Source of the DNA: a virus
DNA: 64,000 bases
Strand: one strand, 5' to 3'
IMG/VR virus record: IMGVR_UViG_3300025652_000032
Location: 1 to 64,000 of that record
The notes below the pieces were generated by a model. It did no database searches. It saw nothing but the letters and a program-made list of their open reading frames with translations, and was not told the origin of the DNA. The translations under genes were made by a program, and so were the position numbers. Positions 1 to 64,000 of the stretch are shown here, piece after piece (positions within the stretch are counted from its first letter, which is position 1; each line of letters starts with the position of its first letter).

Positions 1-1260
1 ATGGCACTAGAATTCTCAGAGATTGCAATGTTAGGTTGCATGTTCTACAAGAAAAAAGATCTGGTAAAGGCAGGTTCCAGTACAGAGAACCTCGTTTCCT
101 TTGTCAACTCCGTCAAGAAGATGATCGAGTCTACGGAAAAGATCAAGTTTGGATCTAGTAAAAACGAGTTTGTCCGTGCAATGAATCCACAGAACAACAA
201 AGTTCTGGATGATTTTTGTCGTGCGATATCTGGAGCAATAGGGACCAAGGAGTGGTTGACTAAACACCACAACGAACCGGCAGATACGGTAATCAAGACA
301 GGATACATGACAGGTAATATCTGGCCGTCGCCGGTAAATGCTTTTAAGTTCGAAGCGTTTGGTATGAAAGATTACAACTCTTCGGACATTATCCTTTATA
401 CGGGTAAACAGGGTTCTAACGAATACTACTACGGAGTCTCACTGAAAAAGAAAGATACGGAATTGGCCCCTGATCCCACCATCATCAACAAAGCATTCGA
501 CTCTATCATGGACGGTCCACAGTTTGATGCGATAAAAGACAAACTAAGAGATGTCCGTGTGAAATGGTTTGCTTCCAAAGTTAGAGAGGCAGATAAAAAG
601 GGATTGATTGAAATAGAAGATAGGCACAAAAAGTTAAACGATGCTGAACTTCTGATGGCAAAACCCACTGATCAAGAGAAAAAGGGATCAAAGGGTAAGC
701 AATATGTAAACCTCAAAGGAACATTGGCAGAGGGATATGACAACGAAGCAGCAAGTTTCAAAAAGTGGATGAATAAAGAAGTTGGTACTGGTAATCTGTT
801 CACACAACTGGTAAAAATTATTGAACCACACATGGAGATGTTTGCAAACTCACTAATCAACCTTGTATTTAAGGCAAAGTTGAACGATAAACTAAATGCG
901 AACAGAGATCTCGATAAATATTACTTTGGATTCACACTAGCAACAGGTGTCGGTAGACACCACCCAAAGACTGGACCAAGCATAGGTAAGGGACAAATAT
1001 ACCCACAGGAAAGTGTATTGTGTGCATTGAGTCACCTTGCTGCCGCAAAGAAACCTTACAAAATGGTGCAGGTTCCAAACCCTGCCGCCAAACAGGATTC
1101 GGTTGCTGCGAAGGTGTTCTTCGAGATCAGAGTGGGCAAAGTTAAACTTCTGGATCTCCAACTTCGTTACAAGGGCGACTTTAAGAGTCAACCGCAGTTC
1201 TTTGCATTCATGACTGATGATTTCAAAAAACTACTCAAGGGTGAATGTTTGGATCCGTGA
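1..1260 (+). CDS. Hypothetical phage protein, possible PD-(D/E)XK restriction-endonuclease-like fold (may begin upstream of the window)
   Basis: 419-aa ORF; SSDIIL...GVSLKKK resembles the D...(S)LK core of PD-(D/E)XK nucleases; function not established. Confidence 0.45.
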   Translation: MALEFSEIAMLGCMFYKKKDLVKAGSSTENLVSFVNSVKKMIESTEKIKFGSSKNEFVRAMNPQNNKVLDDFCRAISGAIGTKEWLTKHHNEPADTVIKTGYMTGNIWPSPVNAFKFEAFGMKDYNSSDIILYTGKQGSNEYYYGVSLKKKDTELAPDPTIINKAFDSIMDGPQFDAIKDKLRDVRVKWFASKVREADKKGLIEIEDRHKKLNDAELLMAKPTDQEKKGSKGKQYVNLKGTLAEGYDNEAASFKKWMNKEVGTGNLFTQLVKIIEPHMEMFANSLINLVFKAKLNDKLNANRDLDKYYFGFTLATGVGRHHPKTGPSIGKGQIYPQESVLCALSHLAAAKKPYKMVQVPNPAAKQDSVAAKVFFEIRVGKVKLLDLQLRYKGDFKSQPQFFAFMTDDFKKLLKGECLDP

Positions 1261-1263
1261 AAA

Positions 1264-1271
1264 GATAAATA
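1264..1271 (+). promoter_or_regulatory. T4-type late (gp55) promoter
   Basis: GATAAATA upstream of AGGAG RBS and ATG 1296. Confidence 0.6.
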
Positions 1272-1295
1272 GATATAAACTATTAGGAGACTATA

Positions 1296-3290: not shown

Positions 3291-3296
3291 AAAAAC

Positions 3297-3327
3297 GGGG
3301 GAGTGCTTGACACTCCCCTATTTTTTT
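3297..3327 (+). terminator. Intrinsic terminator
   Basis: GGGGAGTG-CTTGA-CACTCCCC stem-loop followed by A-T7, directly after stop at 3290. Confidence 0.85.
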
Positions 3328-3335
3328 GCTATGAT
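3307..3335 (+). promoter_or_regulatory. sigma70-type early promoter
   Basis: TTGACA-17 nt-TATGAT with TG extended -10; the -35 lies in the terminator loop. Confidence 0.8.
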
Positions 3336-3362
3336 ATAACCAACTCACACCGGAGACTGTAG

Positions 3363-3866
3363 ATGAGCAGAAATGTGTTGCTGCTGAATGCTTCCGAAGA
3401 AGTAATAAATGTGATTGATTGGAAAAGAGCGATTACACTATTATTCTCGGGTAAGGCACAGGCGCCCTATAATTATGAACATGCATACGAAGTAAAGACA
3501 AACAACGGTAAATTCAGACTACCTTGTGCAATCATGCTTCTCAAGTATGTGCGATTGCCGTTTAGCACGGCAAACCCAACACGAAACAACATTCTCAAAC
3601 GAGATAGTTATCTGTGTCAATATTGTAGTACCCGTCTCACTGCAAAGAATACTACGTTGGATCATGTTATCCCGAAGAGTCGTGGTGGCGGTGGTGGATG
3701 GGAGAACCTCGTCTCCTCATGTATGAAATGCAACAATGTCAAGGGCAACCGCACCCCGCGAGAAGCAAATATGCCCCTGAACAAGAAACCACGCAAAGAA
3801 ACCAACATATCACTCCTGTTTATGTCTATGGGTGACGTTGAAGCATGGAAACGCTGGAACCTATAA
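3363..3866 (+). CDS. HNH endonuclease (McrA-like)
   Basis: RD..CQYC...[12 protein letters not shown]...WENLV..C..CN..KG. Confidence 0.9.
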
Positions 3867-3907
3867 CAAATTAGGCATTTTGTGTAAAACGTGCCTATAT
3901 ATTATAG

Positions 3908-4714
3908 ATGTATAGTTGTAAGCACATCTTTGTCAGTATAGCATTGTGTCTCGCGTTTATACTTACATCATCATGTTCTACCCCAGCAAAAGCAATCGAT
4001 GACTTACCCGGAACTTTCTTTAAGGATTCTGGGTTTATCTGGTTCCTCGATCCATCAGAAGGACCATTACAATGTGTGGGTTCGTTCCACAAAGAGAATG
4101 GTTCTTTGATCGGCGGAGGCACGCTCATTGATGAAGACACTATCATAACAGCAGCACATGTCGTAGAAGAGTCTACCGGCGCAACCAAGTTTCGTGTTGG
4201 TAAGACATTCTATGAGATAGAGAGCATCTGTCTCCATGAAGACTACGAAGGTAAAACTGCAATCAAGAACGACATTGCCATCGTAGAACTGAAAGGAAAG
4301 GTTATTGGGATAGAATTCCCGGATGTCAGTATTGATCCATCACACCTTTCGCCGTTCCGAAGACTTATCACCGTTGGGTATTCGTTAGGGATCAAAAAGA
4401 TCAGCAAACCAGGCGTAATGTTTTACTATGGCACACTAGAACGCGAACCCAACTTCTTCAAGATGTTACCGATGACAGAAACCATGAGGTTTGGTGACTC
4501 TGGTGGTGGTGTCTTTGTAATCGAGAACGGCAGATTTGTATTGGTCGGTGTGGTTTCTTACTTGCAGATATTACAGGAAGAAATAATAGACAACAGCGTA
4601 TTGAGAATTGATAGATATACAAACTGGTTAGATAATGCCGGAGTATTACCATCGAAGTGGAGTCCGCTCGATGAGATCGATTCTGAAATGCCTCATGAGG
4701 CAACACGATATTGA
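3908..4714 (+). CDS. Trypsin-like (S1) serine protease with N-terminal signal/lipoprotein-like segment
   Basis: Catalytic triad motifs TAAHV, NDIA, GDSGGG; hydrophobic N-terminus ending SSC. Confidence 0.85.
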   Translation: MYSCKHIFVSIALCLAFILTSSCSTPAKAIDDLPGTFFKDSGFIWFLDPSEGPLQCVGSFHKENGSLIGGGTLIDEDTIITAAHVVEESTGATKFRVGKTFYEIESICLHEDYEGKTAIKNDIAIVELKGKVIGIEFPDVSIDPSHLSPFRRLITVGYSLGIKKISKPGVMFYYGTLEREPNFFKMLPMTETMRFGDSGGGVFVIENGRFVLVGVVSYLQILQEEIIDNSVLRIDRYTNWLDNAGVLPSKWSPLDEIDSEMPHEATRY

Positions 4715-4820
4715 TCACCCGATTGCCTTTGTTGCGGACTATCTGGACCTCTTGTCCACGAAACGTCTAGAACTAAGGGAGCGGGGCGCCTGTAGTCTCC
4801 GAGAGACAGTACATACTTGG

Positions 4821-4868
4821 TATAAATATAGGAAAAGACTTGCACTAAAACAAAAAGGATGTTATAAT
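4821..4868 (+). promoter_or_regulatory. Tandem late promoter (TATAAATA 4821-4828) and sigma70 promoter (TTGCAC 4840-17 nt-TATAAT 4868)
   Basis: Both motifs read directly; ATG at 4875 lies 6 nt after the -10. Confidence 0.75.
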
Positions 4869-5528
4869 ATGAGTATGACTTTGAAGTTTACACACGTTGA
4901 TGATGCCGAGGCATTTGATGATCTAGAAGCGACAACAGAAGATTCTGGTAAGAGAGTATACAAAACGCCTTCCGGCATTTCCTACCCTTCCGTGACTACG
5001 GTAGTGGGATTTAAGAAGAGGGCGTTTTTTGCTGAATGGAGACGCAAGAATCCAGAGGAATCAAGACGAGTCCTTTCCAGAGGCAACACACTGCACTCAG
5101 TGATCGAGGACTACCTAGACAACAAAGACATCAGCATGGAAGACTGCGGACCTAACAGTTGGCAGTTGTTCGAGCAGTTGCGTCCTGAACTAGACAAGAT
5201 CAACAACGTCCATGCACAGGAAGTGCCTCTCTATTCAGATCTACTTACGTTAGCAGGTCGCGTGGACTGTGTTGCCGAATACGATGGTAAACTTTCGATC
5301 ATCGACTTCAAAGGAAGCACTCGCAACAAGAGTGTAAACGATATCGAAGAATACTTCATGCAGGCAACCGCATACTCGATCATGTGGCAAGAGAGGACTG
5401 GTACTCCTATCGATCAGATAGTCATCCTCATGTCATGCGAAACAGGAGACACAAACGCATTTGTTTCGTCTCCTGTTCGACATGTGAAAAATCTGAAAAA
5501 GATTATCGAAGAGTATTACGCTCAATAG
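4869..5528 (+). CDS. PD-(D/E)XK exonuclease (Cas4/lambda-exo-like, common in T4-like phages); start 4869 or 4875
   Basis: YPSVTTV, RGNTLHS, QEVPLYS, AGRVDCV, IIDFK, QATAY motifs. Confidence 0.85.
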   Translation: MSMTLKFTHVDDAEAFDDLEATTEDSGKRVYKTPSGISYPSVTTVVGFKKRAFFAEWRRKNPEESRRVLSRGNTLHSVIEDYLDNKDISMEDCGPNSWQLFEQLRPELDKINNVHAQEVPLYSDLLTLAGRVDCVAEYDGKLSIIDFKGSTRNKSVNDIEEYFMQATAYSIMWQERTGTPIDQIVILMSCETGDTNAFVSSPVRHVKNLKKIIEEYYAQ

Positions 5529-5839: not shown

Positions 5840-5848
5840 TATTTTACC

Positions 5849-12312: not shown

Positions 12313-13338
12313 TCAGAAACTAATAGTGATACCACTACGGAGAACGAACTGTCCCGAATCGGAACCAGATCGCCATCCAGTGTTTTCTGTGTCGAAGTTA
12401 CTACCGATACCCTCAAGAGCATACCCGGCCGTGTTGGTCCAGACAAGTCCGTGAGCGAGATCGTAGTTACCACCTACGGTGAGAATGTTGAGACTACCAT
12501 CGTAGTCACCAATTTCCCACTGTGCAAATCCTTCGAACTTATCGAAGCACTTATATGCAGCAGTAGTGACTACTGACCAGTTGTCGAGACTACCAGCACC
12601 TGCATCATTAGCAATCCAGTCTGCATCGAGAGTAAGAAGACCCTCGGTGAGTGTACCACCAAAGGTGAAACTGTTCACACCTTCCGTGACAGAATCATAT
12701 GCCCAACCACCGTTGAGTGACACGGAGTCATTCACACGATAATTCGCTGCGACACCGATGGCATACTTGTTGTCTCCAACTCCTACACCAGCAGTATCGA
12801 AACCATTGTTGTAGAAGGCGCTGACTTCGAAGTCACCGAATGATCGGAAGGCCTCAACACCTGCTCCGCGTCCCTGTCCGAAGGTAAGTGCCGTGACACT
12901 ATAGTTCAGGGTTGTGAGTTGAGTTGGATCAGTGACGTATCCAGCATAGAACTGGGGAACGAACTGTCCGACTCGAATGTTTGCTTCTTCGAACATACGA
13001 AGAGTAACGACTGCATCAAGCAGATCGAAACTGTTGGTAGCGTCCGACCATTCACCACTGACGAGGTAAGAGAAACTCTCGTTGCTCGTATCTCCTGAGA
13101 AGGTTAGACGGGCGCGGTCAACCGAAAAACCATTTTGGGCGGGAAGTCCGCCACCGTTGGAATACTCCCAACCAGTTTGAATGAAACCACCGACGTTGAT
13201 GCCGAGATGATTGTCATTGAGTGATGCTCTTGTTGAGGCATCAGCGAGGACAAGACTGAATGCGTCGTTGTCCATATCCTGTCCTACAGCAACTCCGCTG
13301 AAAAGACATGATGTAATAATAGCATTGATCATTTTCAT
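12313..13338 (-). CDS. Outer-membrane beta-barrel porin (OprO/OprP-like)
   Basis: Signal peptide, F.VDRARLTFSG, IRVGQF, alternating beta strands, C-terminal Phe (ITISF). Confidence 0.75.
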   Translation of the reverse strand: MKMINAIITSCLFSGVAVGQDMDNDAFSLVLADASTRASLNDNHLGINVGGFIQTGWEYSNGGGLPAQNGFSVDRARLTFSGDTSNESFSYLVSGEWSDATNSFDLLDAVVTLRMFEEANIRVGQFVPQFYAGYVTDPTQLTTLNYSVTALTFGQGRGAGVEAFRSFGDFEVSAFYNNGFDTAGVGVGDNKYAIGVAANYRVNDSVSLNGGWAYDSVTEGVNSFTFGGTLTEGLLTLDADWIANDAGAGSLDNWSVVTTAAYKCFDKFEGFAQWEIGDYDGSLNILTVGGNYDLAHGLVWTNTAGYALEGIGSNFDTENTGWRSGSDSGQFVLRSGITISF

Positions 13339-15735: not shown

Positions 15736-17124
15736 TCAGACGGATCGAGTGATTTCTCGGACGGGAGTATTCACTCGCTCGAAATGTCGTCGAGGGGATT
15801 TTACCACGGAACTAAATCCGTTTGCCGGGAAATCTCTGTTCTTTAATAACGCACCTCCGCCGGCCTTGTTATTCAATCTGAAGTCTCCGTTTGCCGCATC
15901 GACAAATGGATCCTCAGTACAAGTTGTTGGATTTAGAACAGTCATATCTCCCGATGTTTGTGCAGATGTCATGTTGTAGAACACAGGACTGTCAACTATG
16001 TTGTGACCACCCATATGAAAAGTTCCAGAGGACCAACTAGTTGGGTCTGAATAAGAACTCTGGAGAATTCCTGTTTGACAGGTGTGGAATATACAATCTT
16101 TCACCCAATACTTTCTCCCTTTATGGGCAGCCCACTTCAATTCGGTATTAATATTACCAGCAGACGATGGGGCATAAAATCTAAAACCTGTGTTCATATT
16201 GTAAAATATACACCGTTCGAAGAAATGTTGATATTGTCCAGGCATTGAGTTCGTTGTAAAGGCGCCTGTCGAGGAAGACCCACCACCATCCTGACCGGCG
16301 CGGGAATGAACTCCAACTTGATTACCATTTCCAATGAAAATGCAATCGTAAAATTCACCACCATCACCGTGAGCGACTCTTACTTTCAGGAATGCACTCC
16401 ATGCAGCATCGCCGGCGAAACGGAAAACGCAATTGTGGAATCTCCCTTCATTAGTGTTGAAAGGTCCCTCGCTGCCAGTATTTCTTGTGAATGTAGTAAA
16501 GTTTGTCTGGGACAACCGATCTTCAAATTCACAATTATAACATTGAGTCTTCGCCGAGATTGACATCACGAGGCCTGCGTTATGATTGGCAGTCGTTCCT
16601 ACGAAGTCATCTGTTGATATAATATGACAATTCGTCATGGTTCCACATTCTATAGCCAATGAAGAGGAAGTGTTGTTATTGGAGCCATATTTCCATCCTT
16701 CGACTACGAAGTTAGACAACATGGCGCCACTCGGGACTGTCATCTGTCCACCATTTGTAACCCTACCCAGAAGTTTCGGTCTATCGTTTCCATGCACCGT
16801 TTCGAGTGTGTTTCCGTTTGCATATCCAATAATATGAAACCCATATGTCTGACCTGCGTAGGTTCCGGTTTCATCGTGTCGGAGAGCATTCCGGGTGAAT
16901 GTCTTGTTACCACCGGAAACCTTATATGCTGCTTCAGTTGTTCCTTGGAAAGTTGCTCCCTGATGCACCCAAAGAACTTGACCAACAGTTGCTCCGTCTA
17001 GTCCGTCCTGAATGTCTTTAAATCCTGTAGCATGAGAGAGTCCATCTTCACTGCCACTGTCATTATCAACATTCACATAAAAATTTGTCGTGTCTGCTGC
17101 GGGTTCGTAAAATCCTCTAGTCAT
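15736..17124 (-). CDS. Parallel beta-helix (pectin-lyase-like) protein, probable adhesin/fibre component
   Basis: Repeating NC.F/DC.F beta-helix turns and C-terminal DPFVDAANGDFRL. Confidence 0.65.
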   Translation of the reverse strand: MTRGFYEPAADTTNFYVNVDNDSGSEDGLSHATGFKDIQDGLDGATVGQVLWVHQGATFQGTTEAAYKVSGGNKTFTRNALRHDETGTYAGQTYGFHIIGYANGNTLETVHGNDRPKLLGRVTNGGQMTVPSGAMLSNFVVEGWKYGSNNNTSSSLAIECGTMTNCHIISTDDFVGTTANHNAGLVMSISAKTQCYNCEFEDRLSQTNFTTFTRNTGSEGPFNTNEGRFHNCVFRFAGDAAWSAFLKVRVAHGDGGEFYDCIFIGNGNQVGVHSRAGQDGGGSSSTGAFTTNSMPGQYQHFFERCIFYNMNTGFRFYAPSSAGNINTELKWAAHKGRKYWVKDCIFHTCQTGILQSSYSDPTSWSSGTFHMGGHNIVDSPVFYNMTSAQTSGDMTVLNPTTCTEDPFVDAANGDFRLNNKAGGGALLKNRDFPANGFSSVVKSPRRHFERVNTPVREITRSV

Positions 17125-17125
17125 A

Positions 17126-20212
<3,087 letters not shown>

Positions 20213-43984: not shown

Positions 43985-44407
43985 CTATTTAGTCCGACCT
44001 ATATGGTACTTGGGACAAAGTTCCCAATCACCTTTTTCTTTGTAAGGAAGAATCTTTATCTGGCTGATTGGAACTGCTGGTTCCTCTGCTTTGGCAGGTA
44101 AGACTATCTCTAATAGTTCCCATTCTTCCAGCAATTTAGCAATCGTATTTCTTCTTCCGATATCGTTTTCTGCTATGTCAGTTGGCAGGCCGTCCAGTGC
44201 AAAGAGTTCTTTGAAGTGGACGATGTAATACTTACCTCGTTTATGTAAGATATGGCATGACTGATATAACTTCTTTTCTTTTCTGGACGATACACCAATT
44301 CGCGTGAGCGTCTCTTTAATCTTCAAAAAATCATCTGGTTCATATAAGGTGATTTCGAGTAAATCACTTACTTCAATATTCGATTGTCCCATTTGTATAA
44401 ACTCCAT
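43985..44407 (-). CDS. regA: Translational repressor RegA
   Basis: DDFLKIKETLTRIG...LYQSCHILHKRG.YYIVHFKELF.LDG. Confidence 0.95.
   Translation of the reverse strand: MEFIQMGQSNIEVSDLLEITLYEPDDFLKIKETLTRIGVSSRKEKKLYQSCHILHKRGKYYIVHFKELFALDGLPTDIAENDIGRRNTIAKLLEEWELLEIVLPAKAEEPAVPISQIKILPYKEKGDWELCPKYHIGRTK
43986..43992 (-). promoter_or_regulatory. Late promoter variant heading the glycosylation cluster
   Basis: CTAAATA overlapping the regA stop, followed by AAGGA RBS and ATG 43966. Confidence 0.6.
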
Positions 44408-48373: not shown

Positions 48374-49957
48374 TTATTCTGGTTTGTAAAAAACCATAAT
48401 CGGTTCATACTTGAGGAACTTACCGTCTACCTTACAATAGTTCTTACACTTAGGCAATCCGTCCTCGCCTATCCGGTTCTGTCCCGGCATAGATTCCAAT
48501 GCCATCTTCAACCTGTATTTATAGACCAAACCAAACGATTCTAGAATATCTTTTGAGTCTTGTTCGAGTGGTAGGTAATTGCCTTTGATCAACACATCGG
48601 CAATATTCCACAAGAGGTATCTGCCCGGTCGCAGGTATTCGGCACAAGTCTCAAGTGTCGGTGCAAGGAAACCATGCCTCCATGAGTCATACGAACTACC
48701 GTACTTTTTGTATGACTGGTTCTCATCCTCACTATATGCTTCACGATTAAAGTATGGCGGCGAAGTGAAGATCATATCCAACTTGCCTTTATACTTTCTA
48801 AAGTCGGGATGAATATGAACTACTTCAGATCCTTCCGAGAAGATCTCGTAAGTATTCGTCTGAGAAAAGAATGGATTACCTCGGTAAGTTTTGGCATTGT
48901 AAAAATCAGCAATATGTTGATACTTACTAAGACCACTATCGGAAAAAATGTTATCAGGGTTGGGGTCGGTTCCAACATAATGAATATTCCGATCATCACG
49001 CACGGACATAGCGCCAAGGATACGACCACCCCATCCAGAAGAAGGATCGTAAACATTGATCGTCTCTTGATCTTTGATGTGTTCGGTGTATCTTTCATAC
49101 AAATACTTCGCTGTCATCGGCGGGAAGTTGACGGCAGGTTGGATGTACCCAATCCTGAAAGACTTCAGTCCTGCTGGGAAGACACGATTACCCTTCTTGT
49201 AAATACGAATTGCGTACAACTTATCGTCAGGAAGATTCTCGATATCAAACGTCGAGTGGTGACGATACGAAAGTTTGGGGATCCACTTCTCCAACTGCTC
49301 TTTTGTTAATTGGAGGATGTCTGTCTGTTGGATTTGAAAGTAACCACTGTTAAGTCCCTCACGGATCTTCACCTGCTCCAGAAGGAAGTCATATCCCTCG
49401 AACACTTCCGGACTAGTAAAGAACGCTTTCATCCAAGACATGGCATCAGGAACATCAACCACGGAATACTTCGTACTAAACTTGATAGCAGAGAGTGCAT
49501 GATTGTAGAAAGAGTCACGGCGAAGGTGTCGCAACGCACCTTTGTAAATCCTCTCGAACTTTGTGTCGTCGGCAAACAGATCATAAATCGAGTACCCATT
49601 ATCACTATCACTGTAGTTGATTCTGGTCTTCATCATATTAGAGAAGAACTGATCTACCTCGACACCCATGCGTGACTTGTTTACAATCACGTCGTCTTCA
49701 ACATCAGACAGTTCATCTGTCTTTGTAAATGTGTGTACAGGATACTCAGCAAGTTTGTTCCAGTTGTCGATGATGACATCTTCGGTCTTACCCATACGAG
49801 GCGGACTGCCGGTTTCATCCCATGATTTGAGAATAGTTTTCCTCATCTCACCTACCCACACACGGAACTCGTCGGGTGTCATCGACAAAAGATCTTCAAA
49901 CAGAACATTCATTTCTGATTCAACGACTGCTGTATTTTTTTCGTAAAAGGGTTTCAT
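48374..49957 (-). CDS. DNA amino-methyltransferase (m4C or m6A)
   Basis: Motif I YDPSSGWGGR and motif IV FTSPPYF. Confidence 0.85.
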   Translation of the reverse strand: MKPFYEKNTAVVESEMNVLFEDLLSMTPDEFRVWVGEMRKTILKSWDETGSPPRMGKTEDVIIDNWNKLAEYPVHTFTKTDELSDVEDDVIVNKSRMGVEVDQFFSNMMKTRINYSDSDNGYSIYDLFADDTKFERIYKGALRHLRRDSFYNHALSAIKFSTKYSVVDVPDAMSWMKAFFTSPEVFEGYDFLLEQVKIREGLNSGYFQIQQTDILQLTKEQLEKWIPKLSYRHHSTFDIENLPDDKLYAIRIYKKGNRVFPAGLKSFRIGYIQPAVNFPPMTAKYLYERYTEHIKDQETINVYDPSSGWGGRILGAMSVRDDRNIHYVGTDPNPDNIFSDSGLSKYQHIADFYNAKTYRGNPFFSQTNTYEIFSEGSEVVHIHPDFRKYKGKLDMIFTSPPYFNREAYSEDENQSYKKYGSSYDSWRHGFLAPTLETCAEYLRPGRYLLWNIADVLIKGNYLPLEQDSKDILESFGLVYKYRLKMALESMPGQNRIGEDGLPKCKNYCKVDGKFLKYEPIMVFYKPE

Positions 49958-50718
49958 GCTCCAACATTCCAAAAAAGTGCGCCGGGACTAGCATGTTCTT
50001 TGATGAACTGCCATGCCTTAGCGTCATAGGTAATCGCTGATGGAAAAGGTGGTATCACCTTTGCGGGTTTATTAAAAGCAATCTCGCACTTGTACGTCTT
50101 TGCTCTTCCGTAATTTCCTTTGTGTCCAACGGTAACACAATGAAAGTCTGCATCTGGCCAAGCGAGTTGGAGTCCTCGCGTAAGGGTTCCTGATGAACCG
50201 ACTGTCCATACTTCGTTTGGTCGAACATCGCACCGTAAAGCAACCCTAATGATGGAAGCGACAACAGTAGGATGGTCAAAACCAATAGGGAGTAATGCAC
50301 GGCGGTTTCTATCTTCTGCAACATAATCTCTTGCTCTCTTTTCTGTGACACTCAACATCCCGTTGGGTATCCATTTCATTATAGCACCTTCATGTATTGC
50401 TTGCAACTGATAATCATGAAGTTTATCCCATGCCCTTTCGGCCATGAAAACTACTGCCTTTTTACCATATCTGCGGCATAAGGAAGCAAGAGAAATCTGT
50501 GCGTACCCAGTTGCCGGAGAACTCCCATATACCCATTCTTCGATCTCCTCGTTAGATTTAATTAAGTAATCGGCGAATCGCATCTTCGATCCACCACCAA
50601 GTAGGTCATCACGAACAACTTGTATACCTTCGTGTTCCTCAATCACGGGATCGGGCAACGTGTCTTGCCAATCACCAATCAGAGGAAGGTAGTCATCAAT
50701 TGTTTCTTGGAATAACAT
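49954..50718 (-). CDS. PLP-dependent fold-type II enzyme (D-cysteine desulfhydrase/ACC deaminase-like)
   Basis: VRDDL.GGGSKMR, GYAQ.SLA, VGSSGTL..G. Confidence 0.75.
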   Translation of the reverse strand: MLFQETIDDYLPLIGDWQDTLPDPVIEEHEGIQVVRDDLLGGGSKMRFADYLIKSNEEIEEWVYGSSPATGYAQISLASLCRRYGKKAVVFMAERAWDKLHDYQLQAIHEGAIMKWIPNGMLSVTEKRARDYVAEDRNRRALLPIGFDHPTVVASIIRVALRCDVRPNEVWTVGSSGTLTRGLQLAWPDADFHCVTVGHKGNYGRAKTYKCEIAFNKPAKVIPPFPSAITYDAKAWQFIKEHASPGALFWNVGA

Positions 50719-52885: not shown

Positions 52886-53937
52886 TGTGAAAGTGCCTCC
52901 ATATACACTGAACGAATTAATTCTTTAATCTTACCTGTGTTGACATTTTCAAGTGTGTCAACTTCATTATATATAAGAGTTATTGTGTCTTTCGTCATGT
53001 CAACAACTTCTTCTTCTTCAATTTCTTCCCCATAGTCTTCGACTATGGTCAAGTTCTGTACTTGTGTATCATAGAACTTATCACACAGTTTGTCAAACGT
53101 ATAAGGTTTAGTTTTATTGATAACAAAAATCTTGACATAGGTATTCTTGAAATCATTAAAGTCCATCTTGTTTATGATCTCGTCATAATCGGTCTTTGAA
53201 TCATCATAGTACAAGAAGTGAAATAGTTTGTTTGGGTTCTCAACAAACTCAATTGCTCTTGTTTCTGTATCGAGAACATGAAACCCCTTCTTCTCTTTGA
53301 GATCCGAGAAGGTAATTTGATACTGTGTACCAAGGTAATGAACATTGTTCTGGCTGTGCTTTCCGTGGAAGTGACCAGAGAGAACCATCTCAAATCTTTT
53401 GAGTGGATCATCATCCATTCCCCCATCAAACTTTACACCACGCATCACTTCATAACCATTCAATTCAAAATGACCACCTACGATAGATGCCTTCGTATTC
53501 TTAAGAAACGACAACACATCTTCTCGATTCCTTTTGTTTATCCAAGGAACAAGGGCAATTAATGTGCCGTCGTAATCCACCTCAACAGGCGATTCGTGAA
53601 GGTGGAAATTGTCATACCTGTCACCAAACAATTCTTTCGGTGAATTTAGATCGTTCGTATTCTTAAAGTAAGTATCATGGTTGCCAATAATACAATTGAC
53701 ATTCAATCCATTCTCTCTCATAGGTTCCATGAAGTTTTTGCGAACCTGAGACAGCGTACTGAAGTTAACAAACTTGCGACGATCCATAAGATCACCCAAG
53801 TGAATTACCTCTGTAATATTGTGTTCTTTGCAATACGGAAAAAATATCTCGTCAAAGAACTTGTTTATGTACTCTGCGAAAGTAGTGGAGTCATTGCGAA
53901 CTCCAAAGTGAGTATCATTAATCAACGCAATTTTCAT
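52882..53937 (-). CDS. gp47: Recombination endonuclease nuclease subunit (Mre11/SbcD-like)
   Basis: DTHFG, LGD, GNHD, GHF, SGHFH. Confidence 0.95.
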   Translation of the reverse strand: MKIALINDTHFGVRNDSTTFAEYINKFFDEIFFPYCKEHNITEVIHLGDLMDRRKFVNFSTLSQVRKNFMEPMRENGLNVNCIIGNHDTYFKNTNDLNSPKELFGDRYDNFHLHESPVEVDYDGTLIALVPWINKRNREDVLSFLKNTKASIVGGHFELNGYEVMRGVKFDGGMDDDPLKRFEMVLSGHFHGKHSQNNVHYLGTQYQITFSDLKEKKGFHVLDTETRAIEFVENPNKLFHFLYYDDSKTDYDEIINKMDFNDFKNTYVKIFVINKTKPYTFDKLCDKFYDTQVQNLTIVEDYGEEIEEEEVVDMTKDTITLIYNEVDTLENVNTGKIKELIRSVYMEALSQ

Positions 53938-58223: not shown

Positions 58224-58241
58224 AAGAAATCTCCTCTACAC

Positions 58242-58249
58242 TATTTATA
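58242..58249 (-). promoter_or_regulatory. Late promoter for gp3
   Basis: TATAAATA then GAGGAG RBS. Confidence 0.8.
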
Positions 58250-58253
58250 CAAT

Positions 58254-58284
58254 AAAAAAGGGGAGAGTCACTAGGACTCTCCCC
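58254..58284 (-). terminator. Intrinsic terminator after gp23
   Basis: GGGGAGAGTC-CTAGT-GACTCTCCCC followed by T6. Confidence 0.9.
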
Positions 58285-58306
58285 TGATTTACGTTTTACT
58301 TACCGA

Positions 58307-59788
58307 TCAGTCAGCAGCGTATACTGAACCGTCACCAAGGCCATGCAGGTTATCTACACGGAAGATTCGGTAATACTGGTTGATACGAACCGAACTGCTC
58401 GGATCTGCGTTCGAGACGAACGGGTTGTTTACCAGTCCGTAACGAGTCTTAAATCCGATCTTCGGCTGGAAGGAGTTCTCACCAACCGCACGAACCATCT
58501 GGAGTGGAACGTATGGGCAGTAGAACATACCAGCATCGTAAGGTGAAGTACCTCTGTAACCGACTGCAACGAAGTTCTTCGAAACAGAGTCAGTACCTGC
58601 ACCTGCGTATGGATCGACGTAAACCTTCATCTTACCGTTGAGGACACCAGCGAAAGTGCTGGCAGTGTCATCGACGTTAAGGTTGACGTTGAGAGCAGGT
58701 GAGATGTTGAGGAATCCACCCATTGCGAGGGCAGAAGCAACGTCTGCGGAACAGACGATGAAGTTACCCTTACCGCGTCGAGTTTCCTTAGCGATTACGT
58801 TTGCTTCACGTTCGATCTGGAACATGAGTCCACGGAATCTTTCAGCACTCCAACGACCGTCGGAGTCAGCATCTAAGTCGTAGATACCACCGAATGCAGC
58901 GGTCGCACCTGCGTGTCCAACGAGGTTAGCAGCAGTAATACCTACGGTCTTACTACGAAGATCGAGGTGCTGGGCACCAAGTTTCGCCTGACGATAGATG
59001 GTTCGAACGACTTCGCGGTTGATTTCAGCAAGGATTTCCGTGCTGAGAATGTTTGCGAGTTCAGTCTCTGCATCTAAACCGTGAACCGCCTTGAGATCCT
59101 GAGCGAGTTCAGTGGTGTACTCTGCCTTGAGGGCGCGAGTCTTAGCAACAACCGATGTTCTCTCGATAGAGAATGCCATCTCGTTGAATGCTTGTCCACT
59201 TGTACCGAGGTTTTCTGCTTCGGTAGTTGTCATTCCAGTACCAGCGTCAAGACCAGTTGCTGGAACGGTAGTTGCACTGTCACCAACACCATAACCCAGA
59301 AGTGGGTCAGCAGTGATACCACTGGTAACAATACCTGCGTGGCCAGCAGTGAGTCCTGCGAACTTGGTTGCTGGTTCGTTGAAGAGTGCCTCTTCACCGC
59401 TCTGATTGATGTACTTGCTCTTCATTGCAAAGATAAGTCCGGTAGGACCTGTCATTGGTTGCACACCACAGATGTCGTATGCCATCAGGTTGGGCATAGC
59501 ACGACGAACGAGAGAGATAAGAATTGGATCGTATCCCTGCATGTTCGAGTTACTGTTGTTTGCAGCAAGACCAAGACCACCTTGGCTAGCGTTAGCAGGT
59601 GCTTCCGAGATGAACTCTCGTCCCTCGGCATGTGCCTGTTCACGAAGAGCATTCTCTTCGTTCTCAAGAAGAATCGCAGTTACGTTCCTCTTATAGTTGT
59701 CGTCGATCGACGGAAGATCTGAATGTTCAAGAAGTGGTTTCCACTTCGAGGTTAATTCGTCTACATTGAATGTGTTATTCGGGTCCAT
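58307..59788 (-). CDS. gp23: Major capsid protein
   Basis: LISLVRR.MP, GVQPM.GPTG, EM.F.IE, R.LKA.Y..EL.QDL, YCPYVPL, F.PKIGFKTRYG. Confidence 0.97.
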   Translation of the reverse strand: MDPNNTFNVDELTSKWKPLLEHSDLPSIDDNYKRNVTAILLENEENALREQAHAEGREFISEAPANASQGGLGLAANNSNSNMQGYDPILISLVRRAMPNLMAYDICGVQPMTGPTGLIFAMKSKYINQSGEEALFNEPATKFAGLTAGHAGIVTSGITADPLLGYGVGDSATTVPATGLDAGTGMTTTEAENLGTSGQAFNEMAFSIERTSVVAKTRALKAEYTTELAQDLKAVHGLDAETELANILSTEILAEINREVVRTIYRQAKLGAQHLDLRSKTVGITAANLVGHAGATAAFGGIYDLDADSDGRWSAERFRGLMFQIEREANVIAKETRRGKGNFIVCSADVASALAMGGFLNISPALNVNLNVDDTASTFAGVLNGKMKVYVDPYAGAGTDSVSKNFVAVGYRGTSPYDAGMFYCPYVPLQMVRAVGENSFQPKIGFKTRYGLVNNPFVSNADPSSSVRINQYYRIFRVDNLHGLGDGSVYAAD

Positions 59789-59843
59789 TGTTGTGTTCTC
59801 CTTGTTTCCTTTTAAACACTTTTTTATTTATGTTTGAGTAAAT

Positions 59844-61100
59844 TTACGAAACTTTGTTTGGTGATGAAGTTCTACTGATTGCTTGTGAATACAATGACAT
59901 TACAGGATCTGTGATTGGATCTTGCACAGTTTCCTCTGAATCTGTCTGGGGTGCTTCATTGAAGAGTTCGGTCTTCTTTGAAAATGCATGAGTACCAAAG
60001 TAACTTTCTTTAATTACGTTGATCTTCTCCCGGTACTGATCTTCTGTCTCGTACTCAATTCCTTCGACTAACGAACGAAGTTTCTCAACCTCGGTGTCCG
60101 CTAAGTCTCTTGATACCTCAGAGAACACACCATCACAGGTGGACTCTAAGATGTCCTTACGGAGTTCTACATTGTTTGTGATCTGCTCATTGAGCGAATC
60201 TTCGAGATCGCTAACCTTGGTTGCGAGTTCTTCAATCAGATCAGTCTTCTCATCGGGGACATCAATGTATGATTCCTCGAAGAGATTCTTGAGTCCGACC
60301 ATGAAGTCTTCGGCGATTTCGGTTCTAAGACCGTTGGTGATTGCGAGTTCATTATCCTTCATCCACTGTTCTACAACATAACCCAGATAATCATCTACTT
60401 TAGTTGTCAACTCATCAGTGATTGACTCAACTTGCTCTGCGAGTTGAGTGTTGTGGTTCTCAGTTAACTCCTCTTCGATTGCAGTGACTCTTTCGTTTAC
60501 TGCTGCTTCGAAGATGGTAGTTGCCTTTGTACGGAAGTCTTCGGTAAGTTCTTCACCAGTGAAGAGAGCGTCAATATGCTCCTTCATGTTTGGTTTCTCA
60601 ACCTTACCCTTACCCTTTTTACCGGCAGGAACATCAGTTGCTTTCTTACCATCAGTTGCCTGGTTGTCGTCAACGTCAAGAATAGTCTTTGCGACGTTCT
60701 TTGCTTGATCCATGTCGGCAGTTTCTTCGACTTCTTCCTTGTCGTCGTCATCGTCTTCACCCTTTTTCTTCTTCAAGTTCTTTACGAACTGGGGTGGGAC
60801 TTTGCCTTCTTCGACTTCCTTATCTTCATCCTCGTCCTCGTCCTCGTCTTCCTCTTTCTTCATCTTAGAAGCGTTCATTTTACCGTAACCTTCTTCGACC
60901 TTAGCGAGTTCTTCTTGAAGACGTTCTGTGATCTCTTCGGATGAAAGAGTCTTCCAATCAGAAAGTGCTTCTGCGATATCATCGTCAGATGCACCATTGT
61001 TTTTCATAAGGGTATGCATCTTGGCCATCTGAAGACCAAGATCTGAGTCAGACATCGATTCGTCTAACTGAACTTCTTTTTCTGTGTTATTAGTAGCCAT
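59844..61100 (-). CDS. gp22: Prohead core scaffold
   Basis: KA.TIFEAAV, DDYL.YVVEQW..DN..A...G. Confidence 0.92.
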   Translation of the reverse strand: MATNNTEKEVQLDESMSDSDLGLQMAKMHTLMKNNGASDDDIAEALSDWKTLSSEEITERLQEELAKVEEGYGKMNASKMKKEEDEDEDEDEDKEVEEGKVPPQFVKNLKKKKGEDDDDDKEEVEETADMDQAKNVAKTILDVDDNQATDGKKATDVPAGKKGKGKVEKPNMKEHIDALFTGEELTEDFRTKATTIFEAAVNERVTAIEEELTENHNTQLAEQVESITDELTTKVDDYLGYVVEQWMKDNELAITNGLRTEIAEDFMVGLKNLFEESYIDVPDEKTDLIEELATKVSDLEDSLNEQITNNVELRKDILESTCDGVFSEVSRDLADTEVEKLRSLVEGIEYETEDQYREKINVIKESYFGTHAFSKKTELFNEAPQTDSEETVQDPITDPVMSLYSQAISRTSSPNKVS

Positions 61101-61134
61101 TTAAAATGCTCCTTTATTTGTTACTACGACCTAT

Positions 61135-61142
61135 TTATATAT
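61135..61142 (-). promoter_or_regulatory. Late promoter for gp22-gp23 (position approximate; a second CATAAATA precedes gp23 near 59830)
   Basis: TATAAATA upstream of AAGGAG RBS. Confidence 0.7.
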
Positions 61143-61150
61143 TTGGGGTT

Positions 61151-61792
61151 TTAGAGTCTACTTAAAAAGTCCTTGAATGCGTTTAGTTTTGTTTCATTGA
61201 GTTCGGCAGAAGATGCTGAACTAATCATCTTCTGATAACTGTCGATAACCTGTTCTCTCATGAGTCCGTTATCCCAAACCCATTGCTTACCTTCCATGAT
61301 TCCGTTAACGAAAGCATCTGGTGCAGATGGGTCTGCCACAATGTCTACAGCAGATAACATGAAGTCCTTCTGAACTTCATTAACTCCGCCTCTTTCTTTC
61401 AAGGTTCCCATACCACGAGACGATACACCTAACTTTGCTCCCTCATCCATCAGATTTTTTACGATCTTTCCGTATGGGGTTTCTAGGATTTTCGCCTTAC
61501 CAATGATATTGTCATTTTCTTCACGAAGGTCGTTGATGATGTGGGACACACGTTCCAGATTGACCGTCGGTCCTTCTGGATGCCCTAATTCACCCATTGC
61601 TCGATTCTTCTGTACATACTCTTTATTATATCGCCTTACTTCATCAAGAAGAGTCTTCTTGGGATATACTCTTCCGTTGCGATTTTTCTTTTCTGCCTGC
61701 ATGAAGATGCCTTCAATGAAGTATTGCTTCTCTCCATTTTTCTCTTCAGTCAGAAATCTAACGTCTTCAGTTGTCTCGGTGATAAGAAACAT
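61151..61792 (-). CDS. gp21: Prohead protease
   Basis: IEGIFMQA...NRNGR.YP, GELGHP, GVSSRG.G, D.VADPSAP.A. Confidence 0.96.
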   Translation of the reverse strand: MFLITETTEDVRFLTEEKNGEKQYFIEGIFMQAEKKNRNGRVYPKKTLLDEVRRYNKEYVQKNRAMGELGHPEGPTVNLERVSHIINDLREENDNIIGKAKILETPYGKIVKNLMDEGAKLGVSSRGMGTLKERGGVNEVQKDFMLSAVDIVADPSAPDAFVNGIMEGKQWVWDNGLMREQVIDSYQKMISSASSAELNETKLNAFKDFLSRL

Positions 61793-62361
61793 TATTTGTT
61801 ATCTCCTATTGCCTTTTTACGGTCCTCTTTGTCCTGAAGACCCTTGATCTTTTCGTTGCTTCTTGCGATGGATTCTTTCTCTCTGGCAATTTCAGTTTCA
61901 ACACCTTCTTCAACCTTCGATGAATGCTTATCCATGAACTTCATCATTTCAGTATCATTCTTGAAAGTGAATTTATACTTTCCCTTACCGACCTTTTTAC
62001 CGCCAGCAGAAACACCATCGGCATCCTTCTTAAACTTTAAGGTTGTGGTGACTGCTTCGTCTACCTCAACCTCTTCGCTCTTGACTGCCTTCTTAACGGT
62101 CTTTCTTCTGTTGTGTAGATACTCATCGCTGCTATCTACATCACCATCGTTATCGATGTCTTTATCTTCACGATCATCGTGATCACCATCGAGTTCGTCG
62201 TGATCAACTGGATCTAACTTTTTCTTTTCGTCGATCGCTTGTGCCAACTCGAACTTCTTTGCTTCGATAGCATCAGTAATCTTTTCTTGCATGATCTGCT
62301 CAAATGCATCGGATGCTGCTTTGAGGTTGTCGATCATGATTGCTGGTACTAGTTTCTTCAT
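61792..62361 (-). CDS. Prohead core protein (gp67/gp68-like) with DxDxDG motif
   Basis: DKDIDNDGDVDSSDEYLHNRR; position between gp20 and gp21. Confidence 0.7.
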   Translation of the reverse strand: MKKLVPAIMIDNLKAASDAFEQIMQEKITDAIEAKKFELAQAIDEKKKLDPVDHDELDGDHDDREDKDIDNDGDVDSSDEYLHNRRKTVKKAVKSEEVEVDEAVTTTLKFKKDADGVSAGGKKVGKGKYKFTFKNDTEMMKFMDKHSSKVEEGVETEIAREKESIARSNEKIKGLQDKEDRKKAIGDNK

Positions 62362-62402
62362 TTGGTGGTCCTTTTCGTGTATTTAATCTACCTAGTATAT
62401 AG

Positions 62403-62591
62403 TTATTCTGATGCCTCAACCTCGGGTTGTGCTTCAACTTCGGGTTGAACATGCATAGAATCCACCGAGATTTCTAGTCGTTTTTGGTGCAGTGCGTTTG
62501 ATGCCCTGTCATTCAGTCCATTTTCTATATGCTGCTTGAATGCATTTGCATTGTTTATCAGTGCAGCATCGATTGCTTTTCTAGAATCCAT
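62403..62591 (-). CDS. Small prohead core protein (gp67-like)
   Basis: MDSRKAIDAAL.NNA.AFK..I...L...A..AL..KR.EI; overlaps portal stop. Confidence 0.65.
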   Translation of the reverse strand: MDSRKAIDAALINNANAFKQHIENGLNDRASNALHQKRLEISVDSMHVQPEVEAQPEVEASE

Positions 62592-64000
62592 CATCATCTC
62601 CTTCATCAGAATCAGAATCGATATCACCAGATGCCGTTTCTGATTTGATCTGTGTATCAATAAGTTTAATATCTTCTTCGCTTTGCTTGAGGATGTTCTT
62701 GCGGACATATTCGATCGAGTAATACTTGCCAATGTAATCGTCTACTGTCTGTAAGAGATCAATACGCTCTTTAAGAAGTTCGTTTTCCTTAAGTTCAGTG
62801 AAGTACGAGTCTTTGGTAAAGTCAAAGAAAATCACATCTTCATACTTTGCCCAATCATCCTCGGTAATAATACCTTTACTCATCAACTGAACTTTGAGAA
62901 GTACAGAGAATAATTCACTAAACTTCTTACGAAGTCTCTCGATGAACTTGAAGAACTTAACTTCGTCTCTTGTAATCTCAGAAGAACGACCCATGTTGAA
63001 TCCGTTCTCTGCTTCTAGTCTAGAGATCGGAACATTCAAGGACTTGTATAGTTTCTTCTGGAAGTACATTACGTCTTCCATCTCGCCTAGATTCTGTCCA
63101 CCATCCAGAGTTGTGATTTCGGTTCCCCGACCACCTTCTCTTCGCGGCATCCAGTAATCTTCAAGCATGGACTGGTGCCTATGTTCATCTCGCATTGCAC
63201 CAGTTGATGCATCATAAACCATTTTATTCTTATAGCGGTTCATGACATCACGCAGATATTGTTCTGCTTTGTTCTTTGGTAAGTTACCTACGTCAACGTA
63301 AAAGATTCTACGTTCAGGGGCCCTAGAGATCCTGTAAATAACAACCGCGTCTTCGATCATGCGAAGTTGATTGAGTGGTTTTATTGCCTTCTGTAGATAT
63401 CCAAGAACACGTTTCTTTGATGAATCAAACAATCCAGAATGACAATATGCAATAGAGTCAGGGGATACTTTGATTCCTTGCTCAGACAAAAGTTTATCTG
63501 ATGTGGTCGCCGTGTTAGATGTTACATCGTCGTTGTCGAGGTAGACATAAAATTCTTCTACAGAATCAATCAGGGAGATTCCAGATTTAGGATCAACCTT
63601 CTTGTTTACCTTGCGAATCTTCTTGATCTTAATCGGATCAACAGGACGCAATTCATGAATACCCTTTTTAGTATTAGACGGATCAAGGATAATGTGGAAG
63701 AATAATTTACCATCCACATACCATCTACGAAATATTTCATATCCCTTATTATAGAAATCAGTTGTCTTGAGAATGAAATCAAACTCTTCTCTAATTTTAT
63801 TCTTGATAGTCTCTGGTGCATCCAGATCATCAAGGTAAATTTCTACTGGTTTCTTGAACCCATCAAAGACAATAGACTCGTTGACGATATCGTCAACGGC
63901 CATTTCGACTTCAGCATGTAATGCCATGTCTCTATATTTTTTAATGAGATCTACATCATTCCTAGATGCACCCTCAAAGTCAACATAGTGATTTCCGAAA
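62581..64000 (-). CDS. gp20: Portal vertex protein (5' end outside the window)
   Basis: RRWYVDG, YRISRAPERR.FY.DVG, EDYW.PRREGGRGTE, F.KFI.RLR. Confidence 0.97.
   Translation of the reverse strand, partial: FGNHYVDFEGASRNDVDLIKKYRDMALHAEVEMAVDDIVNESIVFDGFKKPVEIYLDDLDAPETIKNKIREEFDFILKTTDFYNKGYEIFRRWYVDGKLFFHIILDPSNTKKGIHELRPVDPIKIKKIRKVNKKVDPKSGISLIDSVEEFYVYLDNDDVTSNTATTSDKLLSEQGIKVSPDSIAYCHSGLFDSSKKRVLGYLQKAIKPLNQLRMIEDAVVIYRISRAPERRIFYVDVGNLPKNKAEQYLRDVMNRYKNKMVYDASTGAMRDEHRHQSMLEDYWMPRREGGRGTEITTLDGGQNLGEMEDVMYFQKKLYKSLNVPISRLEAENGFNMGRSSEITRDEVKFFKFIERLRKKFSELFSVLLKVQLMSKGIITEDDWAKYEDVIFFDFTKDSYFTELKENELLKERIDLLQTVDDYIGKYYSIEYVRKNILKQSEEDIKLIDTQIKSETASGDIDSDSDEGDDDGF

Follow-up and report, generated by a model that had tools for sequence, protein, structure and literature searches.

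Loss of AGCT and near-complete loss of AGCC/GGCT, with GGCC retained, in an uncultured marine T4-like phage: a probable case of restriction-site avoidance

The genome of an uncultured marine T4-like phage has been purged of AGCT and, to within a few sites, of AGCC/GGCT, while GGCC is kept; the ratios to expectation are 0, 0.03, and 0.96, respectively. We attribute this loss, with a probability of roughly 0.78, to restriction-site avoidance against Type II enzymes of the host. The sequence under study is a window of 64,000 nt from the IMG/VR record IMGVR_UViG_3300025652_000032, whose whole contig is 128,029 bp long (71% complete). A direct count over the window gave 0 AGCT, 4 AGCC, and 5 GGCT, at exactly the nine positions named in an earlier sequence-only reading, which had also described GGCC, AGCA, AGCG, TGCT, and CGCT as kept; these words occur 72, 270, 91, 313, and 65 times. 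Across the whole contig, AGCT was found 0 times against 474 expected from base composition and 125 from a maximal-order Markov model, AGCC and GGCT together 14 times against 694 and 265, and GGCC 146 times against 254 and 140.

A codon-shuffled control that keeps the amino-acid sequence was built from 200 shuffles of the 107 ORFs, which make up 96.7% of the contig. AGCT was observed 0 times against 294 +/- 14 in the shuffles (minimum 258), AGCC on the sense strand 6 times against 221 +/- 12, and GGCT on the sense strand 7 times against 172 +/- 11, or 13 against about 393 for the two words pooled within ORFs. GGCC, at 144 against 150 +/- 10, stood at expectation. The depletion of AGCT and AGCC/GGCT far exceeds chance, and because protein-preserving shuffles restore the words, it is not an effect of amino-acid or codon usage. 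The sequence-only reading had proposed Markov and codon-shuffled controls, and had taken counts near expectation or a sufficient effect of amino-acid and codon usage as grounds for giving up its claim; with 0 AGCT against 125 and 294, neither was found.

The purge is made through synonymous codons, chosen according to the neighbouring codon, and leaves the proteins unaffected. After a codon ending in A, alanine is written GCA 415 times, GCG 50 times, GCC once, and GCT never; after a codon ending in T, GCT is used 345 times and GCC 231 times. Of 221 Lys, Gln, or Glu codons before Pro, 220 are of the form xAA; Leu codons that follow xAG are TTR 94 times and CTN never; and no Ser codon AGC has T as the next base. 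On the sense strand, AGCC and GGCT are depleted to the same degree, which places the purge at the level of double-stranded DNA. Selection was evaluated with a relative at 91% identity, using 1,348 substitutions over 15 kb and 300 random placements. The relative had gained 0 AGCY sites against a mean of 41 (minimum 26 in the 300 trials) by random placement, and purifying selection against new AGCY sites is thus still ongoing.

The residual sites of the window are listed in Table 1, together with the genes discussed below. We found that 12 of the 14 residual AGCC sites of the contig lie in a YAGCCR context against 27% expected (p = 8e-6), and this bias among the survivors suggests a flank-dependent enzyme. 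The density of exceptions is 2.9 per kb in 15736-17124 and 0.43 per kb genome-wide, and the two virion-surface genes at 15736-19756 also hold one CACGAG and two CCWGG exceptions. The sequence-only reading had the exceptions cluster in the fibre genes; this holds in part, with 4 of the 14 contig-wide sites in that stretch. The residual sites also turn over, as three of the five that were compared are not common to the 95%-identical relative L003.

Table 1. Residual AGCC/GGCT sites and genes discussed in the text
Feature	Position	Strand	Details
Residual AGCC	16129..16132	+	cAGCCc; ORF 15736-17124
Residual AGCC	16654..16657	+	tAGCCa; ORF 15736-17124
Residual AGCC	16683..16686	+	gAGCCa; ORF 15736-17124
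Residual GGCT	17897..17900	-	minus-strand reading cAGCCa; collagen-repeat fibre ORF 17126-19756
Residual GGCT	44062..44065	-	cAGCCa; regA-like gene 43985-44407; not in 95%-identical relative L003
Residual GGCT	53352..53355	-	cAGCCa; gp47-like gene; kept in L003
Residual GGCT	58464..58467	-	cAGCCg; gp23 major capsid gene; not in L003
Residual GGCT	59584..59587	-	tAGCCa; gp23 gene; not in L003
Residual AGCC	61095..61098	+	complement of ATG-GCT (Met-Ala) start of ORF 59844-61100; kept in L003
Two virion-surface genes	15736..19756	-	weak DUF5123 match; collagen-repeat fibre; 4/14 residual AGCY sites
ORF 1-1260	1..1260	+	phrog_3060; D129 ... S147-L-K149 motif on predicted strands
Small generic HNH endonuclease	3363..3866	+	nuclease candidate of the sequence-only reading
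Cas4-like PD-(D/E)XK exonuclease	4635..5528	+	phrog_298; not a restriction-type enzyme
Sole DNA methyltransferase found	48374..49972	-	532 aa; motif I (DPSSGWGGR), then motif IV (TSPPY)

The AGCY words do not stand alone: some 25 further Type II targets have been removed likewise, and the AGCY purge is no different from theirs. Entire families of degenerate Type II sites are missing (GWGCWC 0/62, YACGTR 0/61), as are the palindromes AACGTT (0/48) and CTGCAG (0/44), along with AGTACT, GGTACC, CTCGAG, GACGTC, and others. Asymmetric words are purged too (GGTCTC 9/45, CACGAG 3/27), and CCWGG and GGWCC stand at 0.27 and 0.74 of expectation. GGATCC, GATATC, ATCGAT, and TTCGAA are left untouched. GCGC is kept solely in the context GGCGC/GCGCC (63 of 63 sites), with HGCGCD at 0 against 63, and GGGCCC, at 15 against 5, is a survivor inside the otherwise purged GDGCHC set.

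Among relatives, almost all members of a broad phage clade have lost AGCT, and in outgroup T4-like contigs the word stands at expectation or above it. Within this range the related clades differ, showing an AGCT-only purge, an all-RGCY purge, or a GGCC-only purge. Only AGCT is targeted in the sister clades L013-30 and L078-81, and all four RGCY words are targeted in the sister clade of L053, L055, L059, L063, L071, L074, and L129. The present phage matches neither the CviJI-type set of all four RGCY words, since it keeps GGCC (144 against 150), nor the AluI-type AGCT-only target, since AGCC/GGCT is at 0.03 of expectation. In L043-57 the ratios are 0.13-0.22 for AGCT, 0.24-0.28 for AGCC/GGCT, and 0.43-0.77 for GGCC, and the order AGCT <= AGCC/GGCT <= GGCC was observed in three lineages: this phage, L043-57, and the pooled RGCY clade. 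The avoidance states follow the clades: the gp46 tree requires 9 changes of state, compared with 33 under shuffled labels. Some AGCT-free relatives seem to have lost AGCC in part, but this is a specific, GDGCHC-like loss of AGCCC/GGGCT and not a weak AGCY purge.

Under host restriction, the selecting agent would be at least one orthodox Type II restriction endonuclease from a Gram-negative host population, which would cut AG^CT always and AGCC/GGCT except in the YAGCCR context; the other ~ 25 Type II words would reflect the same kind of purge, and GGCC would lie outside the AGCY pressure. The sequence-only reading had listed a host DNA-targeting defence among its options, and this option is favoured by the action on double-stranded DNA, the synonymous route, the ongoing selection, and the ~ 25 other words; its added clause, a rescue of GGCC by methylation, is a possibility. 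The sparing of GGCC is explained more tentatively. At somewhat less than even odds, the nuclease may be a CviJI-like RGCY enzyme that meets GGCC (and GGCG) cytosines already methylated, and the survival of GCGC only within GGCGC, together with that of GGGCCC, would fit such a GGCC-type methyl shield. We slightly prefer this to a single host enzyme of intrinsic AGCY-type specificity, which is possible but less likely. Such an enzyme, perhaps an AluI-like or RGCY-like homodimer for which one outer base pair or both must be A/T, would involve no methylation, tolerate G at one outer position only, and cut AGCT best, AGCC/GGCT well, and GGCC never. It would account for the depletion order in the three lineages and for the nesting of AGCC/GGCT loss inside AGCT loss, and the YAGCCR survivors fit weak cleavage of half-cognate sites, but a second coincidence would be needed for the survival of GCGC and GGGCCC in their restricted contexts, and we know of no characterised enzyme that cuts AGCT and AGCC/GGCT while sparing GGCC. 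Promiscuity of restriction is also known to be advantageous in defence (Vasu 2012, as cited in PMC3526282). It is unlikely that the work is shared between an AluI-type AGCT enzyme and a second, unrelated host system, an asymmetric 4-bp AGCC/GGCT enzyme. The AGCT-only avoidance common in sister clades indicates that AluI-type pressure exists alone, and the asymmetric GGTCTC and CACGAG are purged as well; however, AGCC/GGCT loss without AGCT loss was seen in none of the related loci examined, and targets one letter apart would have to be a coincidence. What sits less easily with host restriction is the near-universal AGCT loss in the clade, given that R-M systems vary between strains, and a conserved phage-intrinsic cause of the AGCT loss is an alternative.

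A self-imposed purge is still less probable than a pair of host systems. Here a frequent-cutting nuclease of the phage, perhaps of the whole clade for AGCT, would shred host DNA for nucleotides, much like the host-DNA degradation of chloroviruses, with the phage protected by the absence of the word and not, as chloroviruses are, by methylation; the enzyme would be ORF 1-1260 or another early protein. The AGCT loss is indeed unusually uniform over the clade, chloroviruses encode an RGCY-targeting enzyme, and a D...SLK motif in ORF 1-1260 may be that of a nuclease, perhaps PD-(D/E)XK-like; the AlphaFold model of this protein (pLDDT 50) is too poor for structure search. However, no restriction-type enzyme was recognised on the contig (71% complete). 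Phages that retain AGCC/GGCT (L085) or AGCT (L086) carry homologues of ORF 1-1260, and the ORF is absent from the AGCT-free records G006 and G007. The other two nucleases likewise have homologues in phages keeping the words: contigs with 50-56% identical HNH homologues have AGCC/GGCT at expectation, and L111, one contig carrying a homologue of the Cas4-like gene, has AGCT at expectation. The phage nuclease that the sequence-only reading had offered, with ORF 1-1260 and the HNH gene as candidates, therefore finds no support. The ~ 25 purged words would imply 25-odd nucleases, beyond the coding of one phage, and 14 sites are left, some of them inside essential genes. Mutational erosion, by m5C at AGCY and then deamination, was also among the earlier proposals and is rejected. 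AACT, GACT, and AGTC do show a small excess over codon-shuffle expectation, but AGTT gains only 3%, the largest relative gain is that of AGCA/TGCT (+30%), words that a C-to-T change does not produce, and GGCC is untouched. Mutation bias alone cannot bring some 290 sites down to zero, the word was never created by substitutions in the 91%-identical relative, and no C5 methyltransferase was found. Targeting of AGCY transcripts by a sequence-specific RNase is refuted by the strand symmetry of the AGCC/GGCT loss, sense-strand GGCT being as depleted as AGCC, and the spacers are also free of AGCY apart from one intergenic residual site.

The sole DNA methyltransferase has motif I before motif IV, which makes it an amino-methyltransferase (m4C or m6A). 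This SPPY enzyme is a core gene of the clade, found in 32 related loci spanning every avoidance class, and the lineage L006-11 is without it, yet shows the same GGCC/GGCGC exemption. Neither PDB nor NCBIfam gave a match to it, and the closest cultured-phage protein shares 32% identity with it across roughly one third of the protein. Methyltransferase content was considered as a divider between avoiders and non-avoiders and fails, since both groups include members with the SPPY enzyme and no other methyltransferase was detected. No C5 methyltransferase was detected on the contig (71% complete) or on ten related records. The thymidylate-synthase/dCMP-hydroxymethylase and TGT/DpdA families were not found in the available 71%, giving no sign of base hypermodification. 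A search with the restriction-enzyme family PF09499 (RE_ApaLI) gave no match.

Candidate hosts were sought through several genes. An ESM Atlas search with the phage porin returned viral clusters and, beyond these, no more than weak neighbours from Verrucomicrobiota/Pseudomonadota, and the 98 porin homologues came from metagenome contigs, a single distant one (27% identity) differing in length and identity. A scan of genome contigs with the methyltransferase gave no match. The gp46 alignment scan of genome contigs found only T4-like contigs, in taxonomically scattered MAGs, the closest being at 48% identity in a Terrimicrobiaceae bin.

The phage is a very clean case of what is probably restriction-site avoidance. 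As in other phages with such avoidance, among them the GATC-free Staphylococcus phage K, a 4-bp Type II word has been lost completely and synonymously along with many 6-bp palindromes. It differs in that three of the four RGCY words are purged, a set matched by no described enzyme that we know of, and in its YAGCCR survivors. The survey of Rusinov et al. 2018 (PMC6286503) finds avoidance to be typical for dsDNA phages that are lytic and for the sites of orthodox Type II enzymes, and GCGC-free jumbo enterobacterial phages have been described (Poirot et al. 2019, doi 10.1101/712018). In the chlorovirus IL-3A, R.CviJI cuts RG^CY and M.CviJI takes RGC(Y/G) (PMC3526282, PMC3681635). AGCT, AGCC, and GGCT are three of the four CviJI words, and sister clades purge all four, but the phage fully keeps GGCC, and CviJI is virus-encoded with an m5C methylase, a pair not found here. 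AluI-type systems resemble the phage in that AGCT is absent from it and from most of its clade; a strict AGCT enzyme would be insufficient, however, as AGCC/GGCT is purged too. The pandoraviruses are AGCT-free as well, and R-M models were tested and rejected for them (Poirot et al. 2019, doi 10.1101/712018). The same 4-mer is totally absent across the viral genome, by clade, in both cases, yet pandoraviruses infect a eukaryote and no wider palindrome purge is reported there; in this phage, that wider purge points to R-M.

In marine Myoviridae-like genomes, Hiraoka et al. 2022 (PMC8919816) describe m4C at RGCY, CCWGG, and GGWCC, suggesting that these are contested words in marine phages. The same study places RGCY methylation in viral and rarely in prokaryotic bins, which counts against host restriction. 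In general, however, m5C is poorly detected by SMRT sequencing. Environment, virus type, and contested words are alike, but those viruses methylate the words and this phage deletes them, and its methyltransferase does not track the pattern. The two observations complement each other, in that some marine myovirus lineages methylate a contested word and others delete it. The purged words can be read as a record of the nucleases that the phage has met in an uncultured marine host, including an AGCT/AGCC-cutting activity without a described match and possibly a GGCC-type methyl shield. This fingerprint gives a concrete specificity to seek in candidate hosts and could help to link phages with their hosts.

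The complete absence of AGCT from the window, with four AGCC, five GGCT and 72 GGCC, was confirmed by counting. This agrees exactly with the nine coordinates of the sequence-only reading, which had also described AGCA, AGCG, TGCT and CGCT as frequent and GGCC as occurring several dozen times; the counts likewise put those four words among the frequent ones. The linear IMG/VR viral contig from which it comes, with the window as its first half, is 128,029 bp long (CheckV completeness 71%) and holds 0 AGCT, 14 AGCC/GGCT and 146 GGCC. Base composition predicts 474, 694 and 254, respectively, and a maximal-order Markov model 125, 265 and 140. In a codon-shuffled control, as the sequence-only reading had proposed, the synonymous codons of 107 ORFs, together covering 96.7% of the contig, were permuted ORF by ORF in 200 shuffles. 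The depletion survives: AGCT was observed 0 times versus 294 ± 14 expected (minimum 258), and the ORFs contain 6 AGCC versus 221, 7 GGCT versus 172, and 144 GGCC versus 150. Since the shuffled AGCT, AGCC and GGCT counts are far above those observed, amino-acid and codon usage do not explain the loss.

Codon choice was found to vary with the neighbouring codon. After an A-ending codon, alanine is written GCA 415 times, GCG 50 times, GCC once and GCT never; after a T-ending codon GCT (345) and GCC (231) are used, and after a G-ending codon GCT is down to 5 with GCC still at 92. Before Pro, all but one of 221 Lys, Gln and Glu codons are xAA, though AAG is the commoner Lys codon overall. All 94 Leu codons that follow xAG are TTR and none is CTN, and the base after Ser-AGC is A or G in 182/186 cases and T in none. 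AGCC and its complement GGCT are depleted alike on the sense strand, so the target is double-stranded DNA, not RNA. The AGCY purge is real, very strong and currently maintained: the related loci L091/L083, from another metagenome at 91% nucleotide identity, carry 1,348 substitutions over 15 kb and no AGCY, and the same substitutions placed randomly created a mean of 41 and never fewer than 26 (300 trials). In a comparison with a relative at 95% identity, three of five residual AGCC/GGCT sites occur only in the contig, and the relative has one of its own, which looks like mutation-selection turnover.

To place this pattern among relatives, we fetched 80 IMG/VR loci via gp46 and more via a further three genes, along with four cultured phages and 23 T4-like contigs binned into MAGs; 94 loci, none shorter than 9 kb, were scored, each against its own codon shuffles. 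The contig's own lineage (91–95% nucleotide identity, at least five metagenomes) has observed/expected ratios of 0 for AGCT, 0–0.05 for AGCC/GGCT, and 0.65–0.93 for GGCC. Sister clades purge AGCT alone, the whole RGCY set is purged in another clade of 15 members, and other loci purge GGCC alone or nothing. AGCT is at or above expectation in outgroup T4-like contigs and between 0.34 and 0.54 in cultured Kyanoviridae. On the gp46 tree, the avoidance states need 9 changes, versus 33 with shuffled labels, and no locus scored had lost AGCC/GGCT without losing AGCT. Where AGCT-free relatives show partial AGCC/GGCT loss (L013-15, L026-29, L084, L085, L092, L110, L120, L121), it is AGCCC/GGGCT in particular that is missing (C after AGCC 4% versus 16% expected), which suggests a GDGCHC- or GRGCYC-type pressure.

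The purge extends to about 25 further Type II target words that are absent or nearly so across the whole contig. Among degenerate families, GWGCWC (0 vs 62) and YACGTR (0 vs 61) are gone, as are the hexamers AACGTT (0/48), CTGCAG (0/44), AGTACT (0/36), GGTACC (0/30), CTCGAG, GACGTC, TCGCGA, CGTACG, TGCGCA, GCATGC, AGCGCT and ACGCGT. ACCGGT (3/31), GTCGAC (1/19), CACGAG (3/27), GGTCTC (9/45) and CCATGG are nearly absent; GGATCC, GATATC, ATCGAT, TTCGAA and ATGCAT are at expectation. We take the purged words to match classical Type II specificities (HgiAI, BsaAI, PstI, ScaI, KpnI, XhoI, AatII). Phage avoidance is almost exclusively of orthodox Type II sites and strongest in non-temperate phages (Rusinov et al., PMC6286503). 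The best explanation of the purge is that the phage avoids host Type II restriction, an option of the sequence-only reading that stands here with a wider set of targets alongside AGCY. CviJI targets RGCY (PMC3526282), and m4C was reported at RGCY, CCWGG and GGWCC in marine Myoviridae-like genomes (Hiraoka et al., PMC8919816), so the same words are contested in this phage's environment. CCWGG was observed at 0.27 of expectation and CCSGG was enriched 1.53-fold. GATC was enriched 1.29-fold, with every GATC-containing hexamer palindrome at or above expectation.

Features of the contig and of its close relatives
Feature	Position	Strand	Description
ORF 1-1260	1-1260		phrog_3060
HNH	3363-3866		generic
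Exonuclease	4635-5528		Cas4-like
Porin	12313-13338	minus	OprO/P-like
Fibre region	15736-19756		weak DUF5123 match (first gene) and collagen-repeat fibre; 4/14 residual sites
Methyltransferase	48374-49972	minus	532 aa; motif I before TSPPY motif IV
Methyltransferase with overlapping gene	48374-50718	minus	threonine-dehydratase-like PLP protein (phrog_7093)
Left-end extension	L083:1-7043; L082:1-5064		zeta-toxin/AAA_33-like kinase, DUF6321 protein, several ORFs without family

The candidate nucleases HNH and ORF 1-1260, put forward earlier as possible agents, find no support: their homologues occur in phages that keep AGCC/GGCT; contigs with Cas4-like exonuclease homologues include some with normal AGCC/GGCT and some with normal AGCT. 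ORF 1-1260 homologues are also found in phages retaining AGCT, and the gene is lacking in two AGCT-free relatives; for one of these, G007, the sequence fetched spans the region around its exonuclease homologue. In ORF 1-1260, D129 and S147-L-K149 are invariant and lie on neighbouring predicted strands, and they may form a PD-(D/E)XK-like core; the structure model (pLDDT 50) was too poor for use.

Neither the contig nor any of ten related records (32–119 kb) yielded a C5 methyltransferase. The only methyltransferase found is an amino-methyltransferase, judging by its motif order. It is a clade-specific core gene (best cultured-phage match 32% identity over about one third of the protein), and does not explain the pattern, since its 32 loci cover every avoidance class and it is absent from lineage L006-11, where GGCC is nevertheless kept. 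Its N-terminal domain of ~300 aa has no assigned function, and it is conserved at 60–72% across the clade versus 48–57% for gp46. Close relatives reach 5–7 kb past the contig's left end, and this extension in L083 and L082 carries no methyltransferase.

The sparing of GGCC is paralleled at other words. Every one of the 63 GCGC sites sits in a GGCGC/GCGCC context; the counts are 0 versus 63 expected for the six HGCGCD words together, and 63 versus 50 for GGCGCN/NGCGCC. Within the GDGCHC family, GGGCCC is found 15 times versus 5 expected, and other members are gone or reduced. GCGC is split again in three related lineages (examined: L018-25, L085/L110, L006-11 and L035-40), and the one lineage among them that purges GGCC purges GCGC in both contexts. 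One factor, cytosine methylation at GGCC spilling over to GGCG, could account for all three exemptions (GGCC, GGCGC, GGGCCC); M.HaeIII methylates GGCGCC and the star site GGCG (PMC3526282). We narrowly favour such methylation as what may spare the sites, at a probability of roughly 0.4. In a slightly less likely account, sites flanked by G would be poor substrates for the nucleases as such. Both are compatible with the graded order AGCT ≤ AGCC/GGCT ≤ GGCC seen in three lineages and with survivors that depend on flanks. Twelve of the 14 residual sites are in a YAGCCR context (27% expected, p = 8e-6) and 11 read AGCCA; two are the complement of an ATG-GCT gene start. This flank rule was not seen in other AGCC-purging lineages. 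The first gene of the fibre region also carries other rare exceptions, so recent import, suggested earlier for the fibre genes, is plausible for that gene, to which we confine it.

T4-like core genes are present on the contig (regA, gp62/44/45, RNase H, gp46/47, UvsW, UvsY, gp19, gp53, baseplate protein, nrdJ, thyX), and its major capsid protein shares ~56–57% identity with its counterparts in Synechococcus, Pelagibacter and Methylophilales myoviruses of Kyanoviridae. No close cultured relative was found, and the available part of the contig showed no psbA/psbD, ThyA/dCMP-hydroxymethylase family or TGT family gene. The closest MAG-binned relative, L129 (JBMOHW010000020.1; gp46 48% identical), belongs to the clade purging all RGCY and lies in a Terrimicrobiaceae (Verrucomicrobiota) bin, a weak host hint because other binned relatives are taxonomically scattered. 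The porin has 98 homologues on metagenome contigs up to 156 kb, 45–97% identical bar one 27% outlier; these gave no host clue, and the porin looks like an old gene of these phages, not one newly acquired from a host.

Viral genomes entirely without a given 4-mer, as AGCT is missing here, have been described before: jumbo enterobacterial phages without GCGC, and pandoraviruses without AGCT, for which R-M models failed when tested (doi 10.1101/712018). This phage stands out in purging three of the four RGCY words, in its YAGCCR survivors and in a GCGC flank rule that matches. Taken together, these features predict a particular combination of enzyme and methylation that could be tested for in a marine host.
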